64,000 nucleotides of DNA, taken from positions 148 through 64,147 of the forward strand of contig CAZQDP010000005.1 in the NCBI GenBank assembly GCA_964592375.1, read 5' to 3'. The stretch is from an uncultured Eubacteriales bacterium. Lineage in GTDB: Bacteria; Bacillota; Clostridia; RUG12999. Positions 1 through 18,480 of the stretch are shown in pieces. The notes under the pieces were generated by a model, which was not told where the DNA came from, searched no databases, and saw nothing but the letters and a program-made list of their open reading frames with translations. Within the stretch, counting starts at the first letter, position 1; each line of letters starts with the position of its first letter. The translations under genes were made by a program, and so were the position numbers.

Positions 1-232
1 CAACGAACACGCCAGCACCAACTAATACGCCGGCACCAACGTCAGCACCAACGAACACACCTGTGCCAACGAACACACCGGTGCCGACGAACACACCGGT
101 ACCAACGAATACGCCGTCACCAACATCGCAACCAACAAATTCGCCGCAACCAACGAGTTCGCCGCAACCGACCGCCGTGCCAACAGTTTCGCCTGTGCCA
201 ACGGCAGCACCGGCGCCCACACCAAAAGGCAT
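1..232. repeat. Imperfect tandem DNA repeats encoding a Pro/Thr-rich linker (ccaacgaacacaccggtgccgacgaa...)
   Basis: Direct reading of the sequence: repeated CCAACGAAYACRCCG units. The translation is TNTPVPTNTP.... Confidence 0.7.
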
Positions 233-1490
233 ATTCTTTAATGACAATTTTGAAAGGTATACCTTAGGCAATGTACAGGCGCCATGGTCAAATGGTTCTT
301 CGACGCTTAGCATTGGTGATATTGCCATTATAGATGATCCGTCAAGTAGCGGAAGAGCGAAGGTTTTAAAAGTAGAACACAAAGGTTCGCCGGCTGCTGC
401 GCAAGCAGTTGCAGCACTTGCGGCAGGTTCTTTCCCGGAGCAGAAAGCTAGATACACATTGCGTTATGATGTCTATCTGCCAACAGCTGCAACCACAGCT
501 GCAAATGTAATGAATTTCAGTAAAGAAGTAGGCTTCCCATATGGTGTTGGCATAGGAACATCTACAGGTGCAACCACTGCCATTGTAGCAAACGGCGGAA
601 CAGATTTAACAAAGCCGGGCTCCAAGGGTGCATGGATCACTGTTGAGTGCCAAGTGGATGTACCAAATCAGCTGTATAGATATAAGGTAGACAACTCAAC
701 CTTCTCAGGCTGGACTGGATTTAGACCAGGTTCAACACCGCATGTAACGATGAAAAGTCTAACCATCGGTTCAAGCAATGCAGTGACTGCCGGTTTATTC
801 TATGTTGATAACATCATGATGTTTAATACGGATGTAAATAATCCATCTGTTAAGACCGTAAAATTCTTTAATAAAGCCGGTTCTGAATTGACTGATCTCA
901 CTGCAATGGATACGGAAATTGGCAAAATAGAAGTTCAATTCGATGGTGTGCTTCCAATTAATAGTGCCACATTAACGGATACATCGGTTGTTCTGAAAAA
1001 CACGAAATCCAATACCAATGTTCCAACATCACGCCAGTTTGACAGTGCAAGCAATTTGCTTACAATTACGCCTACCGCAGCCTTGGATTATGATGCAAGC
1101 CATACACTTACATTGCTTGGTGCAAGCGTAGCGGATACGAACGGGACGATCATTGGTCAGGATTACGTGAAGAGTTTCAAAACGTTTGCAAGAAAGGTTA
1201 CAGCAATTGCTTCCATAACCGGCGAATTGAAAGACGGAGCCACCATTACGCCATTTGTAACGGTTAGAGAAGCTGTACCTAATGCTTCTATTCTTGTAGC
1301 ATTATACGATACCGATAATCGACTATTAGCAATTAGAATTATCAAAGATGTGAACCTAAGTGTAGGAACAACGCAGCTTAGTGCAATCCTAATGCCAGCA
1401 TCTGGCACGGCGGTTCGTGCCGTGGTACTTGTAACAGACAGTGAGCTGGTACCTGTAGCAGAGCCGACAGTACCTGCGCCTGCGGTTTAA
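1..1490 (+). CDS. Secreted/cell-surface protein, 5'-truncated by window edge. It has a Pro-Thr linker (TNTPxP repeats), a ~190-aa beta-rich module starting FNDNFE (possible concanavalin/LamG-like fold), an Ig-like domain and a C-terminal domain.
   Basis: The reading frame is open from position 3. The PT-rich linker continues upstream of the first ATG at 63. The module resembles the repeated domain in the 13681 and 15967 genes (DNFE start, ...YVDN end). No SLH motif is present in the visible part. Confidence 0.5.
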   Translation, partial: TNTPAPTNTPAPTSAPTNTPVPTNTPVPTNTPVPTNTPSPTSQPTNSPQPTSSPQPTAVPTVSPVPTAAPAPTPKGIFFNDNFERYTLGNVQAPWSNGSSTLSIGDIAIIDDPSSSGRAKVLKVEHKGSPAAAQAVAALAAGSFPEQKARYTLRYDVYLPTAATTAANVMNFSKEVGFPYGVGIGTSTGATTAIVANGGTDLTKPGSKGAWITVECQVDVPNQLYRYKVDNSTFSGWTGFRPGSTPHVTMKSLTIGSSNAVTAGLFYVDNIMMFNTDVNNPSVKTVKFFNKAGSELTDLTAMDTEIGKIEVQFDGVLPINSATLTDTSVVLKNTKSNTNVPTSRQFDSASNLLTITPTAALDYDASHTLTLLGASVADTNGTIIGQDYVKSFKTFARKVTAIASITGELKDGATITPFVTVREAVPNASILVALYDTDNRLLAIRIIKDVNLSVGTTQLSAILMPASGTAVRAVVLVTDSELVPVAEPTVPAPAV

Positions 1491-1600
1491 GCTGAAAATG
1501 ACCTATGGGGGCAGAGCATCTGCCCCCCGGCATGGTCAAAGCAATAGAATAAAACCATACAAAAAAATAGAAAAGGTAGTGATATGGAGTGAGGATAACA

Positions 1601-4525
1601 ATGAAAATGAAACTTGTTTGCCTTATAACCGCATTTATTCTTCTCTTTTCAGTGGTACCGGCAAGTGCTGCGCGCTTATTCTACGATGTACCTGAAGGAG
1701 ATTCGTTATACTATGCGGTCAATGAGCTAAGTGCTCTTGGCATCATCTCAGGAGATGCTCAGTCTGAGCTTAAACCAAACGAACCCATTACCAAGGGACA
1801 AATTGCACAGCTTTTGGAAAGCTATTTGGGCCTTGCGCAAAGTGAATCACTGGTCACCGGCTTTGAGGATGTACCATCCTCCCATGCGGCATATCATGCA
1901 ATTGGTGCGCTTGCGGGAGCGGGCTTTATCTCAGCTGATAAAGACGGAAAAATGAATCCAGACAGTAACCTAACCCTTGAACAGACCTTGGAAATATTCC
2001 TTGGCGTGATGGGTTACCTTCCAATCGCGCAGCAGAAGAAGAGCAACGTGGTTGTGGCTTCTGATATTGGGCTGATGAAAAATGTAAAAATGGCTTCTGG
2101 TATGGTTCTCAAAAGAGATGTACTGGCAATGCTGTATAACTCGCTGGACATCAATGTACTGGTTCAAAGCAGTATATCTAGCACTGGTCAGTTTACCTTA
2201 AAGGAAGATAAACCGATTCTTGAAAAATATAGAGACATTTATTCGGAAACTGGGATTGTTGAAGCGAACAGCGTAACAAATCTATACACCGCCATAGGCT
2301 GTGCCGATGGATATGTTGAAATTGGTAGCGTGCTATACAATGTAGCGGAAAGTAAAGCGGATCGCTTCATCGGTCAAAAGGTAAAGCTCTATTATAAAGA
2401 GAGCATCAAAGATAATGAAAAAGTTGCCGTGGCAGCCGTTGTAAGAGAAGATAAGAACAAAACCTTAAGAATAGAACAAGACGATATAGCAGATATCAAC
2501 TTTACAACCAATAAGGCAGAATATAACGATTATAATGCAAAAGCGCAGACGGTATCTATTTCACAGTCCAAATATATTCTATACAATGGTGTAGCGTATC
2601 AAGACTGGACCTTTGATGCGGATACCTTTAAAGGATATGTCGAGTTCATTGATAACAATCGGGATGATGTATATGATATTATCTCTGTTTGGGAATACTT
2701 CAATGTAAAAGTTGCATCTATGGACTTAGAGGATAAGAGCATATACGGTAGATATTATAAGAATAATAATGGGGTTTATGTTTATACCTCCGATAAATTT
2801 ACGCTTGAAGCCGGCATTGGAAGCAAACAAACCATTATGAATAACGGTACCCAGGTAGATTTTTCTGCCATCAAGCCGGGCATGATGGTAAGCATTTTTG
2901 CAAGCCGAGAAGCTGTGCAGGGTGAGGGCAGTAAAAATAGTGTTATTTATCTCTCAACCACCGTGGTAAAGGGTGAAATTGAGGAACATGGCGATGAAGA
3001 GATTGTTGTAGAAGGCGAAACCCTTCAATTAGACGATGCCTTTGTTGCGCAGGGCACAAATTTTAACACCTTAACCCTTGGCTCCATTCGCACCTTATAT
3101 TTGGATGCATTTGGGTATGTCACCGATGTGGAGCTGGAAAACACGACTTCTCCAACAGGGATAAACTATGGGCTGATTACAGATTATGGAATCGGCACAG
3201 GCATGGATGCCAAGCTGGCGCTGAAAATTTTTGGCCAAGACGGCAAAATGCTGATCGCAGACGTGGCGGATAAGGTAGAACTCAACGGCGAGATGACGAA
3301 ATTGGAAACACCCACATCAAAAATGGATGCAAGTAATCCAATTATAAGCATCATCATTGCTGCTGGCAACAATCAGCTAGTGGTTCGCTATCGTGTTAAT
3401 GCAGATGGGGAAATTAACTTTATCGATACACCATCATCTGCTACATTAGCTCTCGATGAGAAAGATCCGGATGCTCTTGTAGAAAATGCAGCATGGAGGG
3501 GAAATGCTTATGTAAGAAATGGTATGCTTGTAATAGGAAATGCTATTGCAGGAACATTGTTTATTGACGATAAGCAATCAGTGGTATTTATGAAGGCCGG
3601 GTTTACAGATCTTGAAGATTACGACTATGCAGTTGTAAAATCAAGTAAGTTTATTCAGTATTCCACTTATAATGTCACTGCATATAATATGAATGAATTT
3701 GGAGTTCCAAAGGTTGTTTTTGCAACCGATTCACAAATGAATCAAATTAGTACAACCACGTTTGGCAGCTTTAGCTATAACACTGCACAAGGAGGGTATA
3801 CGGGTTTCCGTTTAGAATCTGTTTTAACAGGCCAAATTACAGCAAAAAGCCAAGGCATAAATAATGAAGGCGATGCTGTTATAAAGCTGACCATTGGTGG
3901 AAAAGCGTATTCTTGCACAACGACCCTACAATATCAACTGCAAAGAGACACCATAGTGCAGGCTACAACACCAGCTACTCCTCTACCGGCAGCGGCAGAT
4001 ACTCTTTCGGTAGGTGACCATGTTCGCTTTAAGCTCAATAATCGAGGTGAAATCTATGCGCTGTATCCGGACGTTAAAATGATAACGAGTAACAGCGGAA
4101 TAGAAAACGCAATTTTAACTTCTGTTAATGCAACTACGAATACTTATTATATGTACAATAACTTAGGAGATACCAATTGGTATTCCGGCAACTATGCAGA
4201 TTTCTGCTATGGCTTTGTATATTCTAAGGATCCGGTGAGCAATAGAATTTCAGTTGCTTCATCGACCAGTGCAACCGATGTTGTGGCATTTAACAATCCG
4301 AATGACTGTATGAGCTTTGGCAATCTGGAGGCGGCACCCAAGCGTGCACTCAACACCTCAGCGGCAACCAAGGTGAGCATTTACGACGGAGTTTCAAAAA
4401 AGGTGAAAAAAGGCACAATGGCAGACCTGAAGGATTATAAAAACTGCGGGGAAGCATCCTTGATATTTGTTAAGTTTAAAGATACTGTGGTACAAGAAAT
4501 ATTTGTATATCAGCTTGACAGGTAA
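1601..4525 (+). CDS. Large S-layer-homology (SLH) domain cell-surface protein with signal peptide, N-terminal SLH repeats and a long beta-rich body
   Basis: The N-terminus MKMKLVCLITAFILLFSVVPASA is a signal peptide. Two SLH-like motifs follow (FYDVPEGDSLYYAVNELSALGIISGD; FEDVPSSHAAYHAIGALAGAGFISADKDG). The ORF track starts at GTG 1589. ATG 1601 has the better RBS (GAGGA + 5 nt). Confidence 0.6.
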   Translation: MKMKLVCLITAFILLFSVVPASAARLFYDVPEGDSLYYAVNELSALGIISGDAQSELKPNEPITKGQIAQLLESYLGLAQSESLVTGFEDVPSSHAAYHAIGALAGAGFISADKDGKMNPDSNLTLEQTLEIFLGVMGYLPIAQQKKSNVVVASDIGLMKNVKMASGMVLKRDVLAMLYNSLDINVLVQSSISSTGQFTLKEDKPILEKYRDIYSETGIVEANSVTNLYTAIGCADGYVEIGSVLYNVAESKADRFIGQKVKLYYKESIKDNEKVAVAAVVREDKNKTLRIEQDDIADINFTTNKAEYNDYNAKAQTVSISQSKYILYNGVAYQDWTFDADTFKGYVEFIDNNRDDVYDIISVWEYFNVKVASMDLEDKSIYGRYYKNNNGVYVYTSDKFTLEAGIGSKQTIMNNGTQVDFSAIKPGMMVSIFASREAVQGEGSKNSVIYLSTTVVKGEIEEHGDEEIVVEGETLQLDDAFVAQGTNFNTLTLGSIRTLYLDAFGYVTDVELENTTSPTGINYGLITDYGIGTGMDAKLALKIFGQDGKMLIADVADKVELNGEMTKLETPTSKMDASNPIISIIIAAGNNQLVVRYRVNADGEINFIDTPSSATLALDEKDPDALVENAAWRGNAYVRNGMLVIGNAIAGTLFIDDKQSVVFMKAGFTDLEDYDYAVVKSSKFIQYSTYNVTAYNMNEFGVPKVVFATDSQMNQISTTTFGSFSYNTAQGGYTGFRLESVLTGQITAKSQGINNEGDAVIKLTIGGKAYSCTTTLQYQLQRDTIVQATTPATPLPAAADTLSVGDHVRFKLNNRGEIYALYPDVKMITSNSGIENAILTSVNATTNTYYMYNNLGDTNWYSGNYADFCYGFVYSKDPVSNRISVASSTSATDVVAFNNPNDCMSFGNLEAAPKRALNTSAATKVSIYDGVSKKVKKGTMADLKDYKNCGEASLIFVKFKDTVVQEIFVYQLDR

Positions 4526-4577: not shown

Positions 4578-6287
4578 ATGGAGGTAATAGATTTGAAAAA
4601 GTTTAATCGTGCAATTCAAATGCTCGCCCTTTGCCTGAGTATAGCCGTTCTGGTTTCCTGCTTAAGCGTTGTAGCCTTTGCAACAGCAGGAATTTCAGCG
4701 GAGGTTGTATACTTGGAGGGTGAGGGCAACGAATATTTCACCATATCAGGCTCGGCACCTGTCAATTCTCAAGCAGTTGTTACCGTGTATGGCGTGCCAA
4801 GCACAGTCACAACACCTGCCGGCATTACGGAGAGCAACATTATGTTATTTGCCACAGGGCTGACAAGTACCACCGGTACATTTTCCATTAATGCATATCA
4901 GATGGGCGGCATAGCTAGCGGGAACTATAACATTTTTGTTATGGTTGAGGGAGTCGGAAATACAATGGTTCCTTTTGCGTACTTTTCTGTAGATGGACGT
5001 GACGCGGTGAAAGAGGATTTCAACGATAACGCGAATATAGAAACCGCGATTGTAGCATGGATTGACAAGCTGGGCGTGCCATTACTCGGGTATGATAGTT
5101 CAAATTCCGACTTTGTGGCCGATGTATTTGCTTCTTTGATCCCGAAGAACGCGCAAGACCAGCCAGTACAATTTACAGATGTTCAGGCAATCAAGGACAT
5201 TGCACAAAAAGCATTAATCCTCAATGCAATAAAAAATGCACTTACAGATCAAGCAGCGCTTGATTTAATTCAGGAGCATGCAACAACACTGGGTATGAAT
5301 GTGAGCAAGCTGGGTAGCAACAATCTATACAATTTAATTTCAGCACAAGCGTTTAAAATCGCTGACTTTACAGATTTAGAAGCGAACTCAATATATCTTG
5401 CGGCATGGGATACAGCATTAATCCTTGCAGAAGTCAATCTACTGACCGACGCTCGAACCATTCAAGAGAGAATGCTTGTAACATATAAGACAACTTTCAT
5501 GCTAAGCACCGCATCAGGATATTCAGATTACGCAGAAATGACAGAATTAAAGCGGGCTTTGGTATTTGGGGATATCAAAGATGATTTTGTGAGTGGAAAA
5601 TATTATTATACTGTTCAGCAAGCAAGAAATGCATTTACAAAGTATGTCGGTGAAGTAAAAAGCACTATACCTCCTAAGCGCACCGGTGGTGGTGACGGTG
5701 GTACAGTTGCAACCATTGGCATAGCACCTATGCCAACCGCTGCACCAATTGCCTTTACTGATCTTGCAAGCGTTCAGTGGGCTACCGCTTCCGTCAATAC
5801 ACTTGTAGGCGCTGGAGTTGTCAAAGGTTATGAGGATAACACATTCCGTCCTCAAAATGCCGTAACAAGAGCAGAATTTTCTAAAATGCTGGTTATGGTA
5901 TTAAAGCTTGATTTGCAGGCAGCCAAAGGCACCTTTGCAGATGCAGGCACTAGCGAATGGTTTACACCTTATGTGGAAGCTCTTGCGGCGGCAGGTGTTG
6001 CAAAGGGATTGGGCGATGGCAACTTTGGCGTAGATATGCCAATAAGCCGTCAGGATGCTGCTACGATGATTAATCGTGCAGTTGAAAAATATGGCATTAA
6101 GCTTACTGCAGGCACACCCAAAACGTTTGCAGATAGTGCAACCATTGCTGATTATGCAAAGGATTCCGTCAATGCGCTGAGCGCAGCCGGTATTATTAAC
6201 GGCACAGACGGTAATTTCCTCCCCACTAACAATATTACAAGAGCAGAATCTGCAAAGATTTTAGCAGACATATACAACGCAAAATAA
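4578..6287 (+). CDS. Cell-surface protein with signal peptide and three C-terminal SLH domains
   Basis: Three C-terminal SLH repeats are present (FTDLASVQWATASVNTLVGAGVVKGYEDNTFRPQNAVTRAEF; FADAGTSEWFTPYVEALAAAGVAKGLGDGNFG; FADSATIADYAKDSVNALSAAGIINGTDGNF). An alternative TTG start at 4594 lies 8 nt after GGAGG. Confidence 0.6.
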   Translation: MEVIDLKKFNRAIQMLALCLSIAVLVSCLSVVAFATAGISAEVVYLEGEGNEYFTISGSAPVNSQAVVTVYGVPSTVTTPAGITESNIMLFATGLTSTTGTFSINAYQMGGIASGNYNIFVMVEGVGNTMVPFAYFSVDGRDAVKEDFNDNANIETAIVAWIDKLGVPLLGYDSSNSDFVADVFASLIPKNAQDQPVQFTDVQAIKDIAQKALILNAIKNALTDQAALDLIQEHATTLGMNVSKLGSNNLYNLISAQAFKIADFTDLEANSIYLAAWDTALILAEVNLLTDARTIQERMLVTYKTTFMLSTASGYSDYAEMTELKRALVFGDIKDDFVSGKYYYTVQQARNAFTKYVGEVKSTIPPKRTGGGDGGTVATIGIAPMPTAAPIAFTDLASVQWATASVNTLVGAGVVKGYEDNTFRPQNAVTRAEFSKMLVMVLKLDLQAAKGTFADAGTSEWFTPYVEALAAAGVAKGLGDGNFGVDMPISRQDAATMINRAVEKYGIKLTAGTPKTFADSATIADYAKDSVNALSAAGIINGTDGNFLPTNNITRAESAKILADIYNAK

Positions 6288-8050: not shown

Positions 8051-9277
8051 ATGAAAAATTGTGTAATCGGTCAATCGGGAGGACCGACAGCAGTCATCAA
8101 TGCCAGTTTGTGCGGAGCGGTTTGCGCCGCCATGCAGGCTGAGGATATTGGGCATGTATATGGCATGGTCAACGGTATGCAGGGCTTGATGAGTGAGAAG
8201 TTTGTGAATTTTGATGAGATTATCAAAAATGAGAAGGATGTAAATCTACTTTGCAATACGCCGGCGGCATTTTTAGGTTCCTGTCGATTTAAGTTGCCAG
8301 CGGTAGAGGATAAGCCGGCGTTTTTTCAGGAAGCGTTTGCAATACTAGAAAAGCACAATATCGGATACTTTTTTTATATCGGTGGCAACGATTCCATGGA
8401 TACCATTAAAAAAATGGATCAATATGCCAAGCGTGTCGGTAGCGAAATAAAGTTTATGGGAATACCGAAGACTGTAGATAACGACCTGCCCGTAACCGAC
8501 CACACACCCGGATTTGGCTCTGCGGCGCGTTACATTGCCGCAAGTCTTCGTGAGATTGGGCTTGACAGCGATGTGTATGATGTTCATTCGGTAACCATTG
8601 TGGAGATGATGGGGCGCAATGCTGGTTGGCTTACCGCCGCCGCCGCACTTGCTAGATGTGGCAAGGGAACCGCTCCGCACCTGATTTATCTTCCGGAAGT
8701 GCCTTTTAGCGACGAGCAGTTTATAGAGGATATTCGCAGTTTGCAGGGGATAGGAAACGTGGTAGTAGCTGTTTCTGAGGGAATTCGATATGCAGATGGT
8801 ACATATGTATGCGAAAGTGCATGCAGTGGAATGAAGGATGTATTTGGTCATCAATATTTAAGCGGAACCGCAAAGGTACTTGAAAACAAGGTAAGAACAT
8901 TATTAGGATATAAGGCGCGGGGGATTGAGATCAATGTTACTCAGCGTTGCGCTGCACATTTTGCATCCCAAACGGATATAGATGAAGCCTTTGCTGTGGG
9001 TGCAAAGGCTGTGGAAATCGCCTGCATGGGGATTAGCGGGCATTTTGTATACTTCAAACGAATCAGCAATTCTCCCTACGAGATTGCAATGGAGCATTGC
9101 CCCATTGAGCTCGTTGCCAATGTAGAGAAAAAGGTGCCAAGAGAGTGGATCAATGCAAAAGGCAATGATGTCACCATTGAAATGATAAACTATTTAAAAC
9201 CGCTGATTATGGGTCAACCGAGCCTTACACTTGAGGATGGGCTGCCAGTGTACATGCGGCTGAATAAACATCTGTAA
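8051..9277 (+). CDS. pfp: 6-phosphofructokinase, probably pyrophosphate-dependent (long ~400-aa type)
   Basis: PFK motifs are present: GQSGGPTAVINAS, GGNDSMDT and GIPKTVDNDL. The Lys in PKTxDND is the PPi-PFK signature; ATP-PFKs have Gly-Thr there. The 408-aa length fits the PPi group. Confidence 0.8.
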   Translation: MKNCVIGQSGGPTAVINASLCGAVCAAMQAEDIGHVYGMVNGMQGLMSEKFVNFDEIIKNEKDVNLLCNTPAAFLGSCRFKLPAVEDKPAFFQEAFAILEKHNIGYFFYIGGNDSMDTIKKMDQYAKRVGSEIKFMGIPKTVDNDLPVTDHTPGFGSAARYIAASLREIGLDSDVYDVHSVTIVEMMGRNAGWLTAAAALARCGKGTAPHLIYLPEVPFSDEQFIEDIRSLQGIGNVVVAVSEGIRYADGTYVCESACSGMKDVFGHQYLSGTAKVLENKVRTLLGYKARGIEINVTQRCAAHFASQTDIDEAFAVGAKAVEIACMGISGHFVYFKRISNSPYEIAMEHCPIELVANVEKKVPREWINAKGNDVTIEMINYLKPLIMGQPSLTLEDGLPVYMRLNKHL

Positions 9278-10400
9278 AAGGTGCGTTATGCTTGCGGCAG
9301 GCATTTTGTACGTCCTCGTATTCGGGGGCGTACTTTTTATGGTCATCATGCAGGGATACCTTCACGCGGATGTCACCGTAAGCGGTGGATACCACAATAC
9401 TGCTACGGGGCAATACGCGGCGGGTGGCGATGTATTTTCGAAGCCCAATGGTAGAGGTATGGCGCAATATAATATCCTCCAGTGGTGATGGGTCACCGGA
9501 TGCAATGACACCAAGAATAATACCCGGACGGTTTTTCTTCATATAAATAGGGATAGTATATACATCCAGTGCGCCTTGCTCAAAAAGCAGCTGACAGGCA
9601 AGACCAATGGCCTCTCCTGTGCTATCGTCTATATTGGCCTCAATTACGTTCACACAGTCCTTTAAGGCGGACTGTTCATCGATAAGCAATGCGCGAAGAA
9701 CATTGGCACGAACAAAATCCTTCCCTCCTGCGCCATAGCCGATGCCACAAACGATGCCGCCTGGAAAATCAAAGCTACTGCAGATTGCTGCTACAATACC
9801 GGCCCCGGTGGGCGTAATCATCTCGCCTTCTTCCGGAGTCATTACAATGGGAATTTGCGCACTTCGCAAGATTTCCAGCGTGGCAGGAACCGGAACGGGG
9901 ATAACGCCATGCCGACTTTGAACAGTTCCATGACCCTCGCACAAGGGGGAGGCGATGATGCGAGATGGCGAAATCTCATCAAGCAGAATAGAAACGCCCA
10001 CAATATCGACAATGGAATCAATACAACCCACTTCATGAAAGCATACATCCTTGGGGAGGCAACCGTGAATTTTCCCCTCTGCCTCTGCAATGATCGTAAA
10101 AATTTGAGTTGCTGTGCTTTTGATATTTTGGGGGAGCATGCTATTTTCAATGAGGGAGACAATCTCTGCAAAGCTCCTGCCGTGATGGTGATGGGCAAGG
10201 CCTGTCTGATGCACATGGGTATGGGTGGCTGTAATGCCATTTTTTACGACCTTCTTCTGCACAATTTCAAATTCACTGTCTAAACCCAAAAGGGAAAGGC
10301 CGTTCTTGAGCTTTTCAAATCCATTACAAAGCTCACAAAGTGCAGACAAAGTCATGTCCCCACTAATTCCGGAGCTGCAATCCAAATATAATGTTTTCAT
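9225..10400 (-). CDS. larC: LarC, nickel-pincer nucleotide cofactor nickel insertase (DUF111 family)
   Basis: The N-terminus MKTLYLDCSSGISGDMTLSAL is the characteristic DUF111/LarC opening. The ~390-aa gene lies in an operon with larB and larE. Its 3' end overlaps the convergent pfp by 53 bp. Confidence 0.75.
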   Translation of the reverse strand: MKTLYLDCSSGISGDMTLSALCELCNGFEKLKNGLSLLGLDSEFEIVQKKVVKNGITATHTHVHQTGLAHHHHGRSFAEIVSLIENSMLPQNIKSTATQIFTIIAEAEGKIHGCLPKDVCFHEVGCIDSIVDIVGVSILLDEISPSRIIASPLCEGHGTVQSRHGVIPVPVPATLEILRSAQIPIVMTPEEGEMITPTGAGIVAAICSSFDFPGGIVCGIGYGAGGKDFVRANVLRALLIDEQSALKDCVNVIEANIDDSTGEAIGLACQLLFEQGALDVYTIPIYMKKNRPGIILGVIASGDPSPLEDIILRHTSTIGLRKYIATRRVLPRSSIVVSTAYGDIRVKVSLHDDHKKYAPEYEDVQNACRKHNAPFTDVYSAACTLAAHPQV

Positions 10401-10441
10401 CGTGTGTCCTTTCCTGCCGGGAGCATTGCCATTTCCATAGA

Positions 10442-11200
10442 CTAACTCTTGTTGATTACCGCAGCACTGTATCCGGCACCAAAGCCATTGTCTATATTCA
10501 CCACACTAACCCCGGCGGCGCAGGAATTGAGCATACATAATAAAGCGGAAATCCCGCCAAAGCTGGCGCCATAACCGACACTGGTGGGTACTGCAATAAC
10601 AGGACGTGACACCAAACCGGCCACAACACTTGCAAGGGCTCCCTCCATGCCTGCAACAGCAATAATGACATTGGCGGACAAAATAGGCTCAAGGTTTCCC
10701 ATCAGGCGGTGTATACCGGCCACGCCGACGTCATAGATGCGTGTTACCGTATTGCCCAACAGCTCTGCGGTTACAGCGGCTTCTTCGGCCACCGGAATGT
10801 CCGCAGTACCACCGGTTAAGACAGCGATTGTGCCTTTGCCACATGGCGTGATATTTTTTGCTATTGAAAAAATGCGGGCATCCTCATAGTATACCGCATC
10901 GGGATACACCTTGTGCAAACCTGAAAACACGTCCCCATCGGCCCTGGTGCCAAAAATATTTTCACTACCGCTTTGCTGCATCCGCGCCACAATATCAATA
11001 ATATGCGATAATTTCTTGCCGGGGCAAAAGATTACCTCTGCAAAGCCGGTACGAATACTGCGGTGATTGTCCACCTTTGCAAAGCCGATATCGTCATATG
11101 GAAGGGTTTTCAGTGCCTCAAAGGCAGTTGCAATATCGGTACTTCCGGATTTCACGCGCGCTAATAAGTCTTTGATAGCCGCCTCATTCATTGTCAACAC
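10442..11200 (-). CDS. larB: LarB, PurE-like pyridinium-3,5-biscarboxylic acid mononucleotide synthase
   Basis: The ~250-aa protein has a PurE-like C-terminal half (VIIAVAGMEGALASVVAGL...VIAVPTSVGYGA). Its position between larC and larE supports the call. Confidence 0.7.
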   Translation of the reverse strand: MLTMNEAAIKDLLARVKSGSTDIATAFEALKTLPYDDIGFAKVDNHRSIRTGFAEVIFCPGKKLSHIIDIVARMQQSGSENIFGTRADGDVFSGLHKVYPDAVYYEDARIFSIAKNITPCGKGTIAVLTGGTADIPVAEEAAVTAELLGNTVTRIYDVGVAGIHRLMGNLEPILSANVIIAVAGMEGALASVVAGLVSRPVIAVPTSVGYGASFGGISALLCMLNSCAAGVSVVNIDNGFGAGYSAAVINKS

Positions 11201-12026
11201 ATCCCTTATGATGCCCCGGCGCAGGGCTTTGCTTCTTTATTAATACCTTGTTCATATTGCCGGACTGAAATGGCTCTAAATCAAGTGAAATATATCGGTA
11301 TCCTACTTTTTTGAGTTGTGATACTACCTTTTCGCGCATAGAAAACAGCTTCTCCATTTGAGTGCTGGCGATTTCTATCTTCGCCAGATCATCGTAGTGT
11401 CGAACCCGAAAAGCAATAAACCCTAAATCGGAAAGAATATTTTCGGCGTGTTCAATGCGAGACAGTGCATCTTGCGTGATAGCGGTATAATAAGGTATGC
11501 GAGAAGCAAGGCAAGCCGCACTGGCACGATCGTAGCCGCTCATGCCAAGCCTTTTAGAGTATCGGCGCACATCTGCTTTAGAAAAATCGGCTTCCACCAA
11601 AGGGCTTAGTATACCGAGCTCGCTCAGTGCCAAAGCTCCGGGGCGATGGTCCTGCAAATCATCTGTATTAGAGCCGTCTACCACGGTCAAAATGCCTTGC
11701 GCCAAAGCGAAATCTTTCATTTGCGTCATAATGGACTGCTTGCAAAAATAACACCGATCGGGCGCGTTTTGCACAAAGCCAGGGATAGCATACTCATTGG
11801 CCGCAAAAATATAATGGGGAATATGAAGAGCCTCTGCAAACTGCATAGCAGTATTCATCTCCCGTAGTGGCACCATGCTACCGCTGGCAGTGGCGGCGAT
11901 GACCTTTTGCATGCCAATGCTTGCGGCTACCCATAAAAGAAACGAGCTGTCAACCCCACCGGAGAAGGCAACACAAATGCTTTGATGCTTCTGAAGAATG
12001 GCCGCAAGTGCTTTTAGCTTTCCCAT
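11184..12026 (-). CDS. larE: LarE, ATP-dependent sacrificial sulfur transferase (PP-loop ATPase)
   Basis: The PP-loop SGGVDSS lies near the N-terminus. The protein is 280 aa and conserved Cys residues are present. It is adjacent to larB and larC. Confidence 0.7.
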   Translation of the reverse strand: MGKLKALAAILQKHQSICVAFSGGVDSSFLLWVAASIGMQKVIAATASGSMVPLREMNTAMQFAEALHIPHYIFAANEYAIPGFVQNAPDRCYFCKQSIMTQMKDFALAQGILTVVDGSNTDDLQDHRPGALALSELGILSPLVEADFSKADVRRYSKRLGMSGYDRASAACLASRIPYYTAITQDALSRIEHAENILSDLGFIAFRVRHYDDLAKIEIASTQMEKLFSMREKVVSQLKKVGYRYISLDLEPFQSGNMNKVLIKKQSPAPGHHKGCVDNE

Positions 12027-12029
12027 ACA

Positions 12030-13424
12030 TCAAAACTCACAGTTACTAACCGTGCGTGGAAAAGACTGAACATCTCGAATATTTGAAATTCCAGTAAGAT
12101 ACATAATCAGCCGCTCAAAGCCAAGGCCAAAGCCGGCATGCTTTGTGCTACCATACCTTCGGGTGTCAAGATACCAAGAATAATCATTCGGTGAAAGGCC
12201 AAGCTCCTCCAGGCGGGAAGTTAAAAGGTCAAGGCGTTCTTCTCTTTGACTGCCACCGATAATCTCGCCGATGCCCGGTACCAGGCAGTCCATTGCAGCC
12301 ACGGTTTTGCCATCCTCATTTTGGCGCATATAAAATGCTTTGATTTCCTTGGGATAATCAGTTACAAATACAGGCTTTTTAAATACCTGCTCTGTTAAAT
12401 ACCGCTCGTGCTCTGTTTGCAAATCGCATCCCCAGCTGATGGGATACTCAAAGGCAACATCTGCATTTTGAAGAATTTCAATGGCTTTTGTATACGTTAC
12501 ATGTCCAAAATCGGAAGACACTACATGCTGGAGCCTGTCTAGCAATCCTTTGTCAATAAACTGGCTGAAAAATTCCATTTCCTCGGGTGCATGTTGCAGG
12601 CAATAGGAAATAATATATTTCAGCATATTTTCTGCAAGTTGCATGTCATCGAAAAGATCGGCAAAAGCAATTTCCGGCTCTATCATCCAAAACTCTGCGG
12701 CATGACGAGCGGTATTTGAGTTTTCTGCACGGAAGGTAGGACCAAAGGTATAAACCTTGCCAAAGGCCATGCAATGAGTTTCCACATTTAGCTGTCCGCT
12801 GACGGTAAGATTTGCCCCCTTACCGAAAAAGTCCTTCGAAAAATCCACACTGCCATCTTCGGCATGTGGTGGATTTTCGCACGGCAGGGTGGTGACACGA
12901 AACATTTCGCCGGCACCCTCGCAGTCGTTTGCGGTAATGATTGGGGTATGCACATACACAAAGCCTTGCTCATTGAAAAATTGATGAATGGCAAAGGCTG
13001 CCAGAGAACGTATGCGAAGCACTGCCGAAAATGTATTGGTGCGTGGTCGCAGATGAGCAATGGAACGCAAAAATTCCATCGAGTGGCGTTTTTTCTGCAA
13101 GGGATAATCAGGGCCGGAAATGCCTTGCACCTCCACATGGGATGCCTTGATTTCAAAAGGCTGATTGGCATCGGGTGTGAGTGCCAAAACGCCCTGCACA
13201 ATAACAGAGGAACCAACACCAAGCTTTGCTATCTCATCAAAGTTTGAAAGAAATTCTTTTTCAAATACCACTTGTACACTTTTAAAAAAGCTCCCATCGT
13301 TTAGCTCCATAAATCCAAAGGATTTCGAATCTCGCACCGTGCGCACCCAGCCGGCTACAGTGATACTTTTATCCGCATACTCAGCGGTGCTTCTGTATAA
13401 TTGTTTTACATCAATTTTAAACAA
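12030..13424 (-). CDS. asnS: Asparagine--tRNA ligase
   Basis: The 464-aa protein has an N-terminal OB-fold anticodon-binding region followed by class II aaRS motifs ([21 protein letters not shown]). The start is TTG with AAAGGA 9 nt upstream. Confidence 0.85.
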
Positions 13425-13617
13425 TTTAAAACATTCCTTTCCATCATAAATAAGATGTAAATAAAGTATTTATATTTTAAGGTATATTATAACACACTTT
13501 ATAAAATTTTCAACAAAAATTTTCAAAAAATAGGAACAGGCAATGCAAATACTCTCCCTGTGCGACCAAATATGACAATATGCAAAGAAAACGGGAAGTA
13601 ATGTGACCAAATGCATA

Positions 13618-13646
13618 TTTACTTTTCACAAAAAATAATGTATAAT
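13618..13646 (+). promoter_or_regulatory. Putative promoter of the 13681 secreted-protein gene
   Basis: TTTACT - 17 bp - TATAAT, with TG immediately upstream of the -10 box. A strong RBS (AAAGGGAGG) precedes ATG 13681. Confidence 0.3.
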
Positions 13647-13680
13647 AATCATACACTTTACTAAAGGGAGGACAATACAT

Positions 13681-15705
13681 ATGATAACTTCAAAAAGACT
13701 TTTTTCGCTCTTGATGGTTGTATTTATTTTAACCGCAAGCATGGCAGTCGTTACCGCGGAAACAAAATACATCGTAAATGAAGACTTCAACTCACTTTCG
13801 GGAAGCACCAAGCTACCCGGATTTTCCATGTTGGAGTTCGATAGCGGCAATGGCTCAGTCGAATCATTTACAAAAGCAGACGGAAATAAGGGCATCACCC
13901 TTACCGACAAAGATGCTTCAAAAATGGTGGGCTTTTCTAAATCATTTAGTGCAGTAGCCACCACCATGACTTTTGAAATGGAAGTTAAAATGAGTGCATA
14001 CTCAGCGGCACCCGCCGTTGTATGTGTATCGGACGGCAGAGCATGGCCTCCTGCGGCGCAGATACTCATTGCGGCAGATTCCGTCAAAGCGTTTGATGCG
14101 AATGAAACCAAAAGCACAACTACACCAAAGGGATTTTTCAAACTGATGGTTTATTTGGATGCAAGTGCAGGTACATATGACGTATACGTTGGCGAAACCA
14201 AGATGAGCGGCCTCAAATTCCGCAGTGATGCCAAGAAAATGAGTAGAATTGATGTAACCGGCGGACTTGGCAAAGCACCTACAATCATTTCGATTGATAA
14301 CTATAAGGTATATGAAGGCACCCCTGAGGTACAAGGCACAGTAACCGAAGGTGGGCAGACGGATACCCCTGCCACTCCCGGAACAGGAACAACCACCCCT
14401 GCAGGCGGCGGCTCGGTTATTTTTCAGGATAACTTTGAATCCGGTAATATCAGTAGCTTAAAAGCATTCGCCGAAGGAAAGCTTGAGCTGAAAGATGGAA
14501 ATGGTGGCAAGTATTTATATATAACGGATAACAATGATAAGTCACCGGCTGGTTGGCAGCTTGACATTCCGGAGCAAAAGGCAGAATTCACATTGGCATT
14601 TGACTTTTTCCGCGATAGCAGCTCGAAAGCATCGCCAATTATGTACGCAGCAAGCACTGCAGTGGCATTCCCTGCTGGCGTAGCGACATTTTTGAATAGC
14701 AAGCTTTCTGGATTTTCAGGTCCAAATGCCGCAGATAACAAGGCTTCAGCTACGGATATCCCGGCGGACAAGTGGGTAAAGATAGTTTATGCTATTCGCC
14801 CAAACAGCCTTACCTATGATGTTTATGTTAGTGGTGTAAAAGCAATCGATAATTGGGGTTTTAGAAATCAAGGCATATCGTCCATCGACCATTTGCAATT
14901 TGCAGGAGCGACAAACCCAAGCCCCGGTGTTTTAGGAATAGATAATGTGGTTGTTCATGCAGGTGCACCCACGGCAGATGAAATTGCCGGAAAAGCAGCT
15001 ACAACCGCACCCACCGCACCCACAGCACCCACAGCACCCACAGCACCCGCAGCACCCGCAGCACCTGCAGCACCTGCGCCAACCGCTAAGCCTGCCACAC
15101 CGGCAGCTCCTTCTACAGCAGGCGGCTCCGCTATCTATCAGGAGAATTTTGAAGCAGCAAACGTCGGCAGCTTAAAAGCATACGCCGAAGGTAAGCTTGA
15201 GCTGAAGGATGGAAATGGCGGTAAGTATTTGTTTATTACAGATAACAATGATAAATCACCTGCCGGTTGGCAGCTGGATATTCCGGAACAGAAGGCTGAA
15301 TTTACATTGGTTTTTGATTTTATGCGCGATAGTACTTCCAAGTGCCCGGCAATTATGTACGCAGGAAGCTCTGCAGCGGCATTTCCTCCCGGCGTAGCGA
15401 CATTTTTAGCAAGCAAGCTCAGCGGGTTTACCAGTGCTACAGAACAAAAAGTGTCTGCCGCTGAAATCCCGGCAGACAAGTGGGTCAAGGTGGTTTATGC
15501 TATTCGTCCAAACAGCCTTACCTATGATGTATATGTAAATGGTGTAAAAGCAATTGATAATTGGGGCTTTAGAAATCAAACCATCACTTCCATAGACTAT
15601 TTCCACTTTGCAGGTAGCACAAGCCCAAGCCCAGGAACTTTTGGAGTAGACAATGTTGTTGTTCATGCAGGAGCACCCACAGCTACTGAAATAGCAGCAA
15701 AATAG
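13681..15705 (+). CDS. Secreted protein built from three copies of an uncharacterised ~190-aa beta-rich module (possible concanavalin/LamG-like fold) with an internal PT linker. It has no SLH or obvious anchor.
   Basis: A signal peptide is present (MITSKRLFSLLMVVFILTASMAVVTA). The N-terminal module starts at IVNEDFNSL. Modules 2 and 3 run from FQDNFESG to VDNVVVHAGAPT and are ~80% identical to each other. A (TAP)n linker separates them. Confidence 0.5.
   Translation: MITSKRLFSLLMVVFILTASMAVVTAETKYIVNEDFNSLSGSTKLPGFSMLEFDSGNGSVESFTKADGNKGITLTDKDASKMVGFSKSFSAVATTMTFEMEVKMSAYSAAPAVVCVSDGRAWPPAAQILIAADSVKAFDANETKSTTTPKGFFKLMVYLDASAGTYDVYVGETKMSGLKFRSDAKKMSRIDVTGGLGKAPTIISIDNYKVYEGTPEVQGTVTEGGQTDTPATPGTGTTTPAGGGSVIFQDNFESGNISSLKAFAEGKLELKDGNGGKYLYITDNNDKSPAGWQLDIPEQKAEFTLAFDFFRDSSSKASPIMYAASTAVAFPAGVATFLNSKLSGFSGPNAADNKASATDIPADKWVKIVYAIRPNSLTYDVYVSGVKAIDNWGFRNQGISSIDHLQFAGATNPSPGVLGIDNVVVHAGAPTADEIAGKAATTAPTAPTAPTAPTAPAAPAAPAAPAPTAKPATPAAPSTAGGSAIYQENFEAANVGSLKAYAEGKLELKDGNGGKYLFITDNNDKSPAGWQLDIPEQKAEFTLVFDFMRDSTSKCPAIMYAGSSAAAFPPGVATFLASKLSGFTSATEQKVSAAEIPADKWVKVVYAIRPNSLTYDVYVNGVKAIDNWGFRNQTITSIDYFHFAGSTSPSPGTFGVDNVVVHAGAPTATEIAAK
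14403..14995. repeat. Intragenic direct repeat copy 1 (~590 bp). It is ~85% nucleotide-identical to 15121-15702 and clearly related to 16689-17272.
   Basis: Aligned by eye: aaagcattcgccgaaggaaagcttgagctgaaagatggaaatgg... versus aaagcatacgccgaaggtaagcttgagctgaaggatggaaatgg... . The similarity persists to ...gttcatgcaggtgcacccac. Confidence 0.7.
14998..15110. repeat. Short tandem repeats encoding a (TAP)n/(AAP)n linker
   Basis: Units of gcacccaca / gcacccgca repeat ~10 times, translating as TAPTAPTAPTAPAAPAAPAAP. Confidence 0.7.
15121..15702. repeat. Intragenic direct repeat copy 2 (paired with 14403-14995)
   Basis: See copy 1. It encodes the third module of the 13681 gene. Confidence 0.7.
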
Positions 15706-15816
15706 GTTCACGAATATAGTCGCTATTTATGGTCGCTTGGTGGAGTAGAAAATAGAAAGCGCTTCATGAGCGCACCTGCTAAGCTAGATTTTAAATAACA
15801 AAAAGTAGAATAATTA

Positions 15817-15851
15817 AAACAGCCGCATTTCATTTTGCGGCTGTTTTTTTC
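15817..15851 (+). terminator. Rho-independent terminator after the 13681 gene
   Basis: aaaCAGCCGCAtttcatttTGCGGCTGttttttt: an 8-bp GC-rich stem followed by T7. Confidence 0.6.
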
Positions 15852-15966
15852 AGTCCTTACCCTTAATATGGTTTGCAAGCCAATTGATGTATGGAAAAGC
15901 GCGGAGGTACATATAATATATGTATAGCAATTTGCAGGTGCAAGAAGAGTAAGGGAGGGTAAAAGA

Positions 15967-17916
15967 ATGAACAGAGCCAAGAGGCTAACTTCAATTTTTG
16001 TAGTTCTATTTATTTTCATCGGAAGTCTTATCGGAACATGTGCGCAGAGTATGGTTATTGTAAACGAAGACTTTAATTCTCTGCAAGGAAAGGTCAATCT
16101 ACCGGGATTTTCTATGCTGGAAACAAATTCAGGGAAGGGATTTGTGCAAGCAATAGCAAGAAGCGGGAGTGGCAAAATGATTACGCTCACAGATAATGAC
16201 CCCACCAAAATGATTGGGTTTTCAAAAGTTTTTGATGCAGTCAAGGTTCCTCTCACGTTTGAGATTGAAGCGAAAGTAGAGAAAAGATCGAGTACTCCTG
16301 CTGTTATTTGCATATTTGATGACAGGGCATGGCCTCCGGCGGCACAAATACTCATTGCGCCTGATTTAGTGAAAGCGTTTGATAAAAGCGAAACAAAAAG
16401 CATTGGTACACCAAAAGGGTTTTTTAGACTTGCGGTGTATTTGGATGTAGCGGCGGGCACATATGATGTATATGTTGGAGACACCAAGATGAGCGCACTC
16501 AAATTCCGCTGCGAGGCGAAGAGCATTAGCAGAATTGATATCACAGGAGGTCTTGGGCTCGCCCCGAGCGTAGTATCATTTGACAATTATAAGGTATATG
16601 AAGGCGAACCGGAGGCAAAGGGCATAATCAAAGAAGGCGGAACGACAGATGCCGAAAATGCCTCTGCAACAGGAACTGCTACTGCAACGGGCAAAGAAGT
16701 CATCTATCAGGAAACCTTTGATAGCGCAAATGTAAGCAGCCTTGGGGTTGTTGGAGATGGAAAGCTGGAACTGAAAGAAAGAGATAGCGGCAAGTATCTG
16801 CACATTACAGATAATAGTGATACTGCGCCGGCCGGATGGCAAATCATGGTGCCGGAACAGAAAAAGGAGTTTACCCTGGCATTTGATTTTATACGCGAGA
16901 GCGCTACAAAATGCTCGCCGATTATGTATGCAGGGGATTCTGCCGCATTGTTTCCTCCCGGCGTTGCCACATTTTTGAATACCAAACTAAGCGGATTTAC
17001 CAGTGCAACGGAACAAAAAACATCCGACGCAGAGATTCCCTCAGATAAGTGGACAAAAGTGGTCTATAGTATTCGACCAGATAGCCGCACTTATGATGTG
17101 TATATTAGTGGGAAAAAGGCAATTGACAATTGGGGCTTTCGAAACCAAAGCATAGCTTCCATTAACGTTATGCAATTTGCAGGCTCAACAAATCCGAGTC
17201 CCGGTCTATTTGGTGTTGATAATGTCTTGGTGCACGCAGGAGCACCCACGGTGGAGGATTTGACCGGAAAAGCACCTGTCGCCACTTCCAGTAGCACTGC
17301 GGCGCCTATCGCAGGTGCCACCGTTTATAAAGAAGACTTTAGTAGCGCAAAGGCAGGGCCTGCGGAAGATAAATATCCCGGAAACGGCAGTGGTTCAGGC
17401 ACGATTATCGTCAAATCAAGAGCTACGGGTGATCAATATCTTGAAATCACCGATAGCGGGGATGATGGCACATTCGGATGGGTATCCAAGGGCTGGGAAG
17501 TGCAAACTGCAAAGCATACCATTGCATTTGATTTGCTGGTGCCATCCACGAACAAATTTCTTCCGATGACTTATATGTATGATGACGCCGCAAGCTTTCC
17601 GCCTGCCGCAACCGGTCTTTTCCAGGGTGAATTCATTGCATTCAATGGAAGTATGCAGGTGAAATCGGGATTTACTATTCAAAATGATAAGTGGTACAGA
17701 GTGACCTATGCTATAGATCCTGCAAAGGGAGAGTTTTCGGCCTATATAGATGGTACCAAGGTTGCGGATCAATTTTTATTCCGCAATCCGAATGCCAAGG
17801 CAATATCCTCTTTGCATTTCGTGGGTGGGATGAACCCTAGTCCGTGTGTATTTGGGGTAGATAATATTCACATTTATAAAGGTGATCCCGCCTCGCTTGA
17901 TATTGCAAAGAAATAA
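15967..17916 (+). CDS. Secreted paralog of the 13681 gene. It has a signal peptide, an N-terminal module, a middle module and a more divergent third module.
   Basis: The N-terminal module IVNEDFNSLQGKVNLPGFSMLE... is paralogous to 13681. The middle module runs IYQETFDSANVSSLG...VDNVLVHAGAPT. The third module ends ...VDNIHIYKGDP. Confidence 0.5.
   Translation: MNRAKRLTSIFVVLFIFIGSLIGTCAQSMVIVNEDFNSLQGKVNLPGFSMLETNSGKGFVQAIARSGSGKMITLTDNDPTKMIGFSKVFDAVKVPLTFEIEAKVEKRSSTPAVICIFDDRAWPPAAQILIAPDLVKAFDKSETKSIGTPKGFFRLAVYLDVAAGTYDVYVGDTKMSALKFRCEAKSISRIDITGGLGLAPSVVSFDNYKVYEGEPEAKGIIKEGGTTDAENASATGTATATGKEVIYQETFDSANVSSLGVVGDGKLELKERDSGKYLHITDNSDTAPAGWQIMVPEQKKEFTLAFDFIRESATKCSPIMYAGDSAALFPPGVATFLNTKLSGFTSATEQKTSDAEIPSDKWTKVVYSIRPDSRTYDVYISGKKAIDNWGFRNQSIASINVMQFAGSTNPSPGLFGVDNVLVHAGAPTVEDLTGKAPVATSSSTAAPIAGATVYKEDFSSAKAGPAEDKYPGNGSGSGTIIVKSRATGDQYLEITDSGDDGTFGWVSKGWEVQTAKHTIAFDLLVPSTNKFLPMTYMYDDAASFPPAATGLFQGEFIAFNGSMQVKSGFTIQNDKWYRVTYAIDPAKGEFSAYIDGTKVADQFLFRNPNAKAISSLHFVGGMNPSPCVFGVDNIHIYKGDPASLDIAKK
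16689..17272. repeat. Third copy of the ~590-bp module-encoding repeat (in the paralogous gene)
   Basis: This segment encodes the middle module of the 15967 gene (GKEVIYQETFDS...VHAGAPT). Identity to copies 1 and 2 is lower, but the relationship is clear at the protein level and at the DNA level by eye. Confidence 0.55.
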
Positions 17917-17940
17917 TAAAAAAGGTAGCATGTAAAATAC

Positions 17941-17993
17941 AAATGCACCCCAAATGCATACTAGCCATTGGCAGTTGCATTTGGGGTGCATTT
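17941..17993. terminator. Bidirectional terminator hairpin between the convergent 15967 gene and rpiB
   Basis: A perfect ~18-bp inverted repeat (AAATGCACCCCAAATGCA...TGCATTTGGGGTGCATTT) is flanked by A/T runs on both sides. Confidence 0.5.
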
Positions 17994-18033
17994 AAAAAAA
18001 CACTGCGCTTTCGGTCATTTGCAATCGTGAGGA

Positions 18034-18480
18034 TTATAGATACCTCTTTTCAATATCCATTATCTTATCCACCCTGACAAGGTGGCGCCCACCTTGAAAC
18101 CCGGCATGAAGATATGCCCTTACAATCTCAACCGCATCGGCAGGCGTGGTAATTCGGCCGCCAAGGGCAATGACATTTGCATTATTATGCTCCCTTGCCA
18201 TTTGTCCACAAAATACATCACAGCAGTGGGCCGCCCTGATGCCGCGAACTTTATTGGCGGCAATGGACATACCAATGCCTGTGCCGCACAGTAAGATGCC
18301 TGCGTCACATTTGCCGCTTAAAATGGCCTCGCAAACGGGCAGAGCCACATCGGGATAGTCGGCAGACGCTTCATCTATAATACCAAAATCCGTATATGTA
18401 TATCCGTTTTCTTCTAAAAAAGTAAGAATACTTCTCTTTAAGCACAGTCCGCCATGATCACTTCCAATTGCAATGTTCAT
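18034..18480 (-). CDS. rpiB: Ribose-5-phosphate isomerase B (RpiB/LacAB family)
   Basis: The N-terminus is MNIAIGSDHGGLCLKRSILTFLEENGYTYTDFG. The protein is 148 aa, the typical RpiB size. Confidence 0.8.
   Translation of the reverse strand: MNIAIGSDHGGLCLKRSILTFLEENGYTYTDFGIIDEASADYPDVALPVCEAILSGKCDAGILLCGTGIGMSIAANKVRGIRAAHCCDVFCGQMAREHNNANVIALGGRITTPADAVEIVRAYLHAGFQGGRHLVRVDKIMDIEKRYL

Follow-up and report, generated by a model that had tools for sequence, protein, structure and literature searches.

Organization of the tandem genes and their modules

We examined a 64,000-nucleotide stretch of contig CAZQDP010000005.1 from an uncultured Eubacteriales bacterium (the whole of it referred to hereafter as the window), and in it two adjacent genes, A and B, whose products are predicted to be secreted and are built from repeated modules of ~185–190 residues. 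A first reading of the DNA (the original prediction) had described the pair as tandem paralogs assembled from one repeated module; this description is borne out, and the coordinates given there for the two open reading frames (ORFs) of 674 and 649 residues were confirmed exactly (Table 1). The whole proteins share 50% identity. Protein B is independently recorded in a public protein collection (P0001); the exact sequence of protein A is absent from the collection that was searched.

Six segments could be delimited in the two proteins (A_N, A_M1, A_M2, B_N, B_M1 and B_M2), one N-type module being followed in each case by two of M-type. A hidden Markov model (HMM) made from the four M modules and run against the 350 six-frame ORFs of the window finds three domains in each of A and B, and a profile–profile alignment of N with M modules (hhalign) gives 96.9% at an E-value of 1.5e-10 over 176 columns; each protein thus comprises a signal peptide and three copies of one domain. 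The N-terminal module, which had been treated as an entity distinct from the repeat, is on these profile matches a divergent third copy of the same domain as the M modules.

The resemblance between copies is steeply graded. A_M1 and A_M2 are the closest pair (78% protein and 80% DNA identity, codon-aligned, the latter below the ~85% first estimated), followed by A_M2/B_M1 (71% protein, 70.5% DNA), A_M1/B_M1 (66% and 68%) and A_N/B_N (65% and 66%); B_M2 shares only 32–36% protein and 44–51% DNA identity with the other M modules, and N with M modules 25–31% and 38–43%. Scored against shuffled sequences, the close pairs reach z values of 45–54, B_M2 against the other M modules 21–22, and N against M 7.5–12.4. 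Direct-repeat families D1–D3 connect the module copies at the DNA level. The motifs first proposed as internal landmarks of the module (GWQ, ATFL..KLSGF, DNWGFRNQ and VHAGAPT) recur in three of the four M modules; B_M2 instead carries GWV, DQFLFRN and IYKGDPAS. Linkers between the modules are of low complexity and rich in Gly, Thr, Pro and Ala; that between M1 and M2 of protein A is encoded by a short tandem array which, described at period 27, extends to 15086.

One more copy of the module, predicted at the outset, was confirmed in an ORF that is open at the window start (3–1490, + strand; hmmsearch E 1.5e-5, 21–22% identity); the M-module HMM has no match among the 350 six-frame ORFs beyond this one, A and B. 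The ORF runs from a long Pro/Thr-rich linker (PTNTPAPT...) through the module (residues ~76–280 of the frame) and a Big_5 domain, which is Ig-like, to a C-terminal region with no Pfam match; it is what the window retains of the C-terminal part of a larger protein, of surface or extracellular type.

In both A and B the N-terminal segment is the sole hydrophobic stretch (Kyte–Doolittle, 19-residue window; maxima of 2.45 in A and 2.36 in B, only at residues 7–25), and it has the features of a type I signal peptide: a positively charged n-region with K/R, a hydrophobic h-region and small residues at -3 and -1 (MITSKR...VTA before E in A, MNRAKR...TCA before Q in B). The signal peptides were judged from such features, with the cleavage sites deduced in the same way, and both proteins would be exported via Sec. 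Pfam and regex scans of A and B found no SLH, cohesin, LPXTG, lipobox or dockerin-like motif, the one match to a loose LPXTG pattern (VPSTN) being internal to protein B. Hydrophobicity and both scans therefore uphold the earlier claim of a shared signal peptide and no anchor. Protein B was also considered as a lipoprotein and rejected, as its 'IGTC' does not fit the lipobox pattern.

Genes A and B look like separate transcription units, given that each has its own ribosome-binding site, that gene A has its own terminator, and that a promoter-like site precedes it; the latter would serve as the gene A promoter on the strength of its match to a sigma-70-like pattern. Downstream, gene B converges on rpiB, and the perfect inverted repeat between them (I4) is probably a bidirectional terminator shared by the two genes. 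An Rfam scan of 13300–18200 returned chance-level matches only, among them a microRNA match at 17941–17993. Two antisense ORFs (13626–14141 and 15723–16586) were rejected as genes, being shadows of the A and B coding frames, and no inverted repeat pointed to an invertible promoter or to cassette switching.

Table 1. Positions of genes A and B, their modules and associated signals in the window.
Feature	Position	Strand	Description and basis
Module copy in ORF 3–1490	228..842	+	Distant copy of the module; hmmsearch
Promoter-like site 5' of gene A	13618..13646	+	TTTACT-17 nt-TATAAT; consensus scan, 10/12 matches
Ribosome-binding site of gene A	13664..13671	+	AAGGGAGG, 9 nt 5' of ATG; seen in sequence
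Gene A	13681..15705	+	674 aa; signal peptide, N-type module, M1, Pro/Thr/Ala linker, M2
Predicted Sec signal peptide of A	13681..13758	+	MITSKRLFSLLMVVFILTASMAVVTA, cleaved before ETKY; K/R n-region; V-T-A at -3 to -1
A_N	13765..14328	+	N-type module, aa 29-216; HMM i-E 2.2e-12 to M profile
A_M1	14416..14976	+	M-type module, aa 246-432; HMM 335 bits
Linker repeat of A	15007..15074	+	9-bp tandem repeat x7.6 encoding the (T/A)AP linker between M1 and M2; Tandem Repeats Finder
A_M2	15130..15702	+	M-type module, aa 484-674 (aa 484-668 in the six-segment delimitation)
Intrinsic terminator of gene A	15816..15851	+	12-bp-stem hairpin, then T-run; sequence and terminator scan
Ribosome-binding site of gene B	15951..15958	+	AAGGGAGG, 8 nt 5' of ATG; seen in sequence
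Gene B	15967..17916	+	649 aa; signal peptide, N-type module, M1, divergent M2
Predicted signal peptide of B	15967..16044	+	MNRAKRLTSIFVVLFIFIGSLIGTCA, cleaved before QS; hydrophobicity; no canonical lipobox by regex
B_N	16051..16614	+	N-type module, aa 29-216; HMM i-E 1.4e-11 to M profile
B_M1	16699..17253	+	M-type module, aa 245-429; HMM 341 bits
B_M2	17320..17895	+	Divergent M-type module, aa 452-643
Inverted repeat I4	17941..17993		Perfect 18-bp arms (100% complementary), 17-nt loop; between convergent gene B and rpiB

Age of the module copies and constraint upon them

Nonsynonymous (dN) and synonymous (dS) divergence, estimated by the method of Nei and Gojobori, place even the closest pair of modules well apart: A_M1/A_M2 have a dS of 0.83 and a dN of 0.13 (dN/dS 0.15). 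A_M2/B_M1 (dS 2.1, dN/dS 0.09) and A_N/B_N (dS 2.15, dN/dS 0.13) are more diverged, and in all other module pairs the synonymous sites have reached saturation. A_M1 and A_M2 share no identical run longer than 23 nt; their identity varies between 63% and 92% across 20-codon windows, and no long tract of conversion is seen. Judged by these values, the duplications of module and gene are old, contrary to the proposal that duplication was recent or that gene conversion is ongoing. All module copies are under purifying selection (dN/dS 0.09–0.15), and all are therefore probably functional.

The sequence of events that fits the pairwise identities would begin with an ancestral gene encoding a signal peptide, an N module and two M-type modules (SP-N-M-M'). 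A tandem gene duplication, by now saturated at synonymous sites, would have followed; an intragenic duplication or replacement, more recent than this yet likewise old, would then have made the third module of protein A an M1-type copy, with gene B retaining its divergent third module.

That the repeat structure could be an artefact of assembly or annotation (collapsed or chimeric repeats, or non-coding DNA) is an explanation invited by the origin of the contig in a draft or metagenome-assembled genome (MAG), by the missing record of protein A and by the 9-bp repeat within its linker. An assembly artefact, which the original prediction had named as fatal to its reading, is excluded by the divergence of the copies from one another by 20–65%, as an assembler could not collapse or mis-join sequences so different. 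Both frames are moreover long and open, with strong ribosome-binding sites and a terminator, they show the coding constraint described above, protein B has its independent record, and the modules yield confident fold models; taken together, we regard an artefact of either kind as vanishingly improbable. The 9-bp linker repeat at 15007–15074 is the only part that could be unstable in length.

Fold and relatives of the module

Taken whole, both proteins pass the gathering score of 27.6 bits for Laminin_G_3 (PF13385; A 33.2 bits, B 36.0 bits), these scores being sums over two partial stretches that reach only the C-terminal half of the Pfam model. Taken singly, B_M2 (26.1 bits), A_M2 (25.1 bits) and B_M1 (17.3 bits) all stay below it, and A_M1, A_N, B_N and the window-start module give no Laminin_G_3 match. 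Sialidase-like_CBM (PF22585) scores 25.2 bits with protein B against a gathering score of 27, at most 12.7 bits with single modules, and does not match protein A. The N-type variant is not seen by Pfam, NCBIfam holds nothing meaningful for A, B or their close homologs, and a single-sequence search of the PDB returned nothing. The modules do not map cleanly to a well-characterized family, no single one reaching a gathering score; the clean match to an annotated family that would have overturned the original prediction is thus absent, and the prediction is not refuted, even if what emerges is fairly ordinary.

The fold was approached through AlphaFold2 models, for which the alignment consisted of the seven window modules only. 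A_M2 (pLDDT 91.4, pTM 0.90) is modeled with 15 β-strands, and A_N (pLDDT 88.1, pTM 0.86) is likewise all-β. For both models the top Foldseek match in the PDB is the accessory β-sandwich of BT_1020 (5mqr; TMq 0.74 with A_M2, and 0.81 with A_N at an rmsd of 3.1 Å), followed by the lectin-like domains of trans-sialidase and of an Akkermansia sialidase and by the clostridial neurotoxin Hc-N domain; an exo-β-agarase accessory domain and legume and ERGIC-53-type lectins lie further down, and identity is 7–18% in all Foldseek matches. A profile made from 34 sequences of the family, searched against the PDB, reaches 4qvs, a LamG-like 'S-layer domain-containing protein' (E 3.5e-4), and residues 444–572 of 5mqr (E 1.2e-3), as well as GH131, lectins, laminin LG domains and the Vibrio sialidase lectin domain. 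On these models and matches the A and B modules are β-sandwiches of ConA/LamG type (a jelly roll of ~180–200 residues), and the jelly-roll fold suggested earlier is corroborated by Laminin_G_3, by the two AlphaFold models, by Foldseek and by the profile search alike.

Two edge strands, [DE]xF[DEN] at the N-terminus and [IV]DN[VI]x[VI] at the C-terminus with a short helix behind it, typify modules of the Laminin_G_3 type. The A and B modules share both these signatures and the β-sandwich, and in Clostridia both kinds of module accompany extracellular enzymes that degrade glycans; A and B differ in that four of their six modules have no Laminin_G_3 match and in that none is joined to an enzyme. 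The domain of BT_1020 from Bacteroides thetaiotaomicron (5mqr, PF22585), although the best structural match of both N- and M-type models, has only 11–13% sequence identity to the modules and is an internal part of a two-enzyme polypeptide, whereas A and B are free-standing tandem arrays. The lectin domains of sialidases and trans-sialidases (the C-terminal domain of the Trypanosoma cruzi enzyme, and those of Vibrio cholerae and of Akkermansia GH181) and neurotoxin Hc-N are jelly rolls of similar size (Foldseek E 1e-6 to 1e-5), at 10–18% identity, in other domain contexts and with shared ligand residues not established.

Within the family, conservation falls mostly on core-strand residues (F7, L34, D38, T59, D63, Y77, W118, Y135 and D174-N175) and on one loop, F147-R148-N149, a pattern that would be expected of a binding scaffold with variable specificity. 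This bears on whether A and B might be multi-catalytic enzymes of ConA fold (GH16-, GH131-, PL7- or Cip1-like glycanases or lyases), as the weaker Foldseek matches to GH16 glucanases and laminarinases, GH131, a PL7 lyase and Cip1 (TMq 0.5–0.69) and sub-threshold Pfam matches to Polysacc_lyase (in the homolog P0004) and to 3keto-disac_hyd (in A_M2) could suggest. The 34-sequence alignment, however, has no conserved acidic pair and no conserved set of His, Tyr, Arg and Gln, its conserved positions being mainly in the core; the regex search finds no GH16-type ExDxxE or ExDxE in A or B, the top structural matches are non-catalytic, and homologs carry separate, true catalytic domains beside the module. 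We consider catalysis by A and B improbable.

Weak similarity to PHROG 6011 ('virion structural protein') was also recorded (A residues 502–627, E 3e-7; B residues 262–404, E 4e-4). It probably reflects the ConA-like domains of phage structural proteins rather than phage origin, and no phage genes lie near A and B.

When the M profile was run exhaustively with HMMER against 1.84 billion cluster representatives, 300 relatives emerged at E <=1e-3, of which 39 reached <=1e-10 and 6 reached <=1e-30, the top match being protein B itself (P0001, 672 bits). On this count the clade is rare, and the close relatives are all NCBI singleton clusters. Two more distant relatives, P0033 and P0037, match the M profile at E values of ~1e-11 and score 87–96 bits on PF22585, which links the window module to that family transitively. 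The proposal of an unannotated domain family thus stands insofar as no module has a clean Pfam match of its own, and gives way insofar as the whole proteins pass PF13385 and HMMER links lead to PF22585 members; the module is a poorly modeled, divergent branch of the known ConA-like superfamily, at the fringe of Laminin_G_3 and below threshold as a relative of Sialidase-like_CBM, not a new fold or kind of domain.

Searches of other types were far less productive. Word-indexed protein searches are nearly blind to this family, such that an empty result there does not amount to absence: full-length A found only its neighbor B (the linker probably swamped the candidates), a four-module profile found no match, not even P0001, and the 34-sequence profile gave two weak matches. 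No related locus was found in species-representative genomes with the M profile, or in JGI metagenomes with the M and N alignments. Among the top 40 homologs, compared with N- and M-type HMMs, no specifically N-type module occurs outside the A/B pair; conservation of the N-then-M order in homologs was accordingly rejected, no homolog module preferring the N-type HMM.

Nearly all relatives are large multidomain proteins in which the module stands right after the signal peptide, often doubled, and is frequently repeated at the extreme C-terminus. The closest, P0002, is a homolog of GH96-like α-agarase (PDB 9m0b, E 3.7e-21); this match covers residues 743–1195, where Pfam reports no catalytic domain. 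Enzymes found as partners elsewhere include a PL8 lyase (P0028), GH28 (P0043), GH10 (P0067), GDSL esterases (P0011, P0050), an AXE1/α-β hydrolase (P0009) and a BNR sialidase-like protein (P0006). Counted together with P0002, the partner enzymes span substrates of agar-like, pectic, xylan and glycosaminoglycan/xanthan type. β-helix proteins (P0029, P0038), DUF4962 (P0073, P0090) and CBM96 (P0113) also occur, Cu_amine_oxidN1 is a very frequent partner, and Big_2, Big_5, fn3 and CarboxypepD_reg serve as spacers. P0002–P0009, which lie on short contigs (9–46 kb), might derive from the MAG of the window or a sister of it, in which case the module would represent a lineage-specific expansion.

Probable function and genomic setting

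In other Bacillota the module appears, from these architectures, to be an accessory part of extracellular polysaccharide-active enzymes, and A and B are for this reason most likely glycan binders; the partner domains of the homologs make plausible the carbohydrate- or ligand-binding role first suggested. We propose, at a probability of roughly 0.6, that A and B are exported as trivalent glycan binders without catalytic activity, that is, stand-alone arrays of carbohydrate-binding modules (CBMs) or lectins. Each protein would be exported by Sec without retention at the membrane, cell wall or S-layer, and would present three ConA/LamG β-sandwich modules (one N-type and two M-type) on flexible, low-complexity linkers. 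The three modules would bind an extracellular glycan with avidity strengthening the interaction, and the N-type, M-type and divergent B_M2 modules plausibly differ in specificity.

Precedent for such a role comes from the Laminin_G_3 module of a Ruminiclostridium josui arabinofuranosidase, which is reported as a CBM according to the passage of PMC9655821 that cites the work (Sakka et al, 2019). By the CAZy definition, a CBM lies within a carbohydrate-active enzyme (CAZyme); homologs with enzyme partners fit this description, and A and B have no catalytic domain.

Tandem, non-catalytic β-sandwich binders that gain avidity through multivalency are known among the SusE/SusF-type proteins of Bacteroides and the CBM-only proteins of Clostridia and Ruminococcus, which are lipid-anchored or dockerin-borne and encoded in polysaccharide-utilization clusters. 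A and B would embody the same concept with an unrelated module family, without an anchor, and among housekeeping genes.

Several points weigh against glycan binding by secreted arrays. Every single module scores below the Pfam gathering thresholds, PF22585 and the BT_1020 domain are, so far as is established, called 'CBM' in name only, and the case for secretion consists of sequence features. Other domains of ConA/LamG type have proteins or lipids as ligands, or a purely structural role. A and B are flanked by housekeeping genes on the opposite strand, with neither a CAZyme nor a transporter or regulator adjoining them.

A further consideration is the envelope. Three SLH-domain proteins are encoded in the window, all on the + strand: a 978-residue protein with N-terminal SLH (1589–4525), a 569-residue protein with three C-terminal SLH repeats (4578–6287) and a GDSL esterase with C-terminal SLH repeats (40619–42592), from which we conclude that the organism has an S-layer-type envelope. 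A and B could then be envelope-associated instead, with structural or protein-binding roles in which the modules would serve contacts between proteins or with the cell wall, as in S-layer decoration or in adhesion to other cells or surfaces, and not the capture of a substrate glycan; besides the SLH proteins, this would suit the related module in the surface-type protein at the window start, the best PDB profile match being an 'S-layer domain-containing protein' (4qvs), the many close homologs with Cu_amine_oxidN1 (common in surface proteins of Bacillota), the weak match to a virion structural protein, and the fact that neither neurotoxin Hc-N nor the laminin LG domains simply bind sugars. A and B themselves, however, lack SLH, Cu_amine_oxidN1, LPXTG or any other known retention domain, and elsewhere the module is joined predominantly to polysaccharide-active enzymes. 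An envelope role is on balance unlikely, albeit worth keeping in view.

A more far-reaching version of the glycan-binding proposal can be put forward only tentatively: the module may found an unclassified CBM family that has a ligand specificity of its own, with A and B acting as free, trivalent proteins for glycan capture or matrix cross-linking, and with the N-type module directed to another target than the M-type modules (possibly a polymer of the organism's own wall).

The surroundings of the pair are those of a core chromosome. Upstream of A, on the opposite strand, lie genes for a class-II aminoacyl-tRNA synthetase, AIRC (LarB-like), a PP-loop ATPase and Ni_insertion (LarC), and downstream of B, also on the opposite strand, those for RpiB, a TsaB-like protein, TsaE and FTHFS; ProRS, RecJ, RelA/SpoT, PolC, DnaE, a Mur ligase and BipA are encoded farther away in the window. 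A horizontal-transfer island was rejected, the GC content of 0.42–0.46 being like that of the rest of the window. FTHFS has at most ~65% identity to the GTDB species representatives retrieved (the best of these being MAGs of Clostridia and other Bacillota), which points to a poorly sampled lineage of Clostridia type.

Three other loci in the window deserve mention. At 9225–12026 (- strand), three consecutive genes encode Ni_insertion, AIR-carboxylase-like and PP-loop ATPase proteins (the last with a weak Asn_synthase match), which we take to be of LarC, LarB and LarE type and which look like a set for biosynthesis of the nickel-pincer cofactor; no LarA-type gene was identified adjoining this set. 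Between polC (42657–47039, +) and dnaE (48691–52170, -), lies a 520-residue ORF (47126–48688, -) for which Pfam gives nothing at E <=1e-3; 3 nt separate its end from the dnaE ORF, with which it may share a transcript. Finally, 53947–56481 (-) encodes an 844-residue protein with a GGDEF diguanylate cyclase domain and an HD domain of HD_5 type (PF13487), a kind associated with cyclic di-GMP phosphodiesterases; from its domains, this product would be a dual cyclic di-GMP turnover protein.

What sets A and B apart is the poor capture of the module by existing models, the rarity of its clade, and an architecture of modules only, with neither an anchor nor a context resembling a polysaccharide-utilization locus. 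Conceptually there is nothing new here: this is a rare sequence subfamily within an ordinary kind of protein. As it stands, what is gained is mainly a refined annotation of the pair: each protein has three ConA-like domains, the duplications are old, and a lectin role is likely. A demonstration of binding would make the clade of ~300 members, poorly captured by Pfam, a new family of CBM type and would help to annotate the large extracellular enzymes of under-sampled Bacillota, and the stand-alone trivalent versions could serve as glycan probes. Were the module indeed the founding member of an unclassified CBM family, A and B would represent a Gram-positive, anchorless counterpart of surface glycan-binding proteins.

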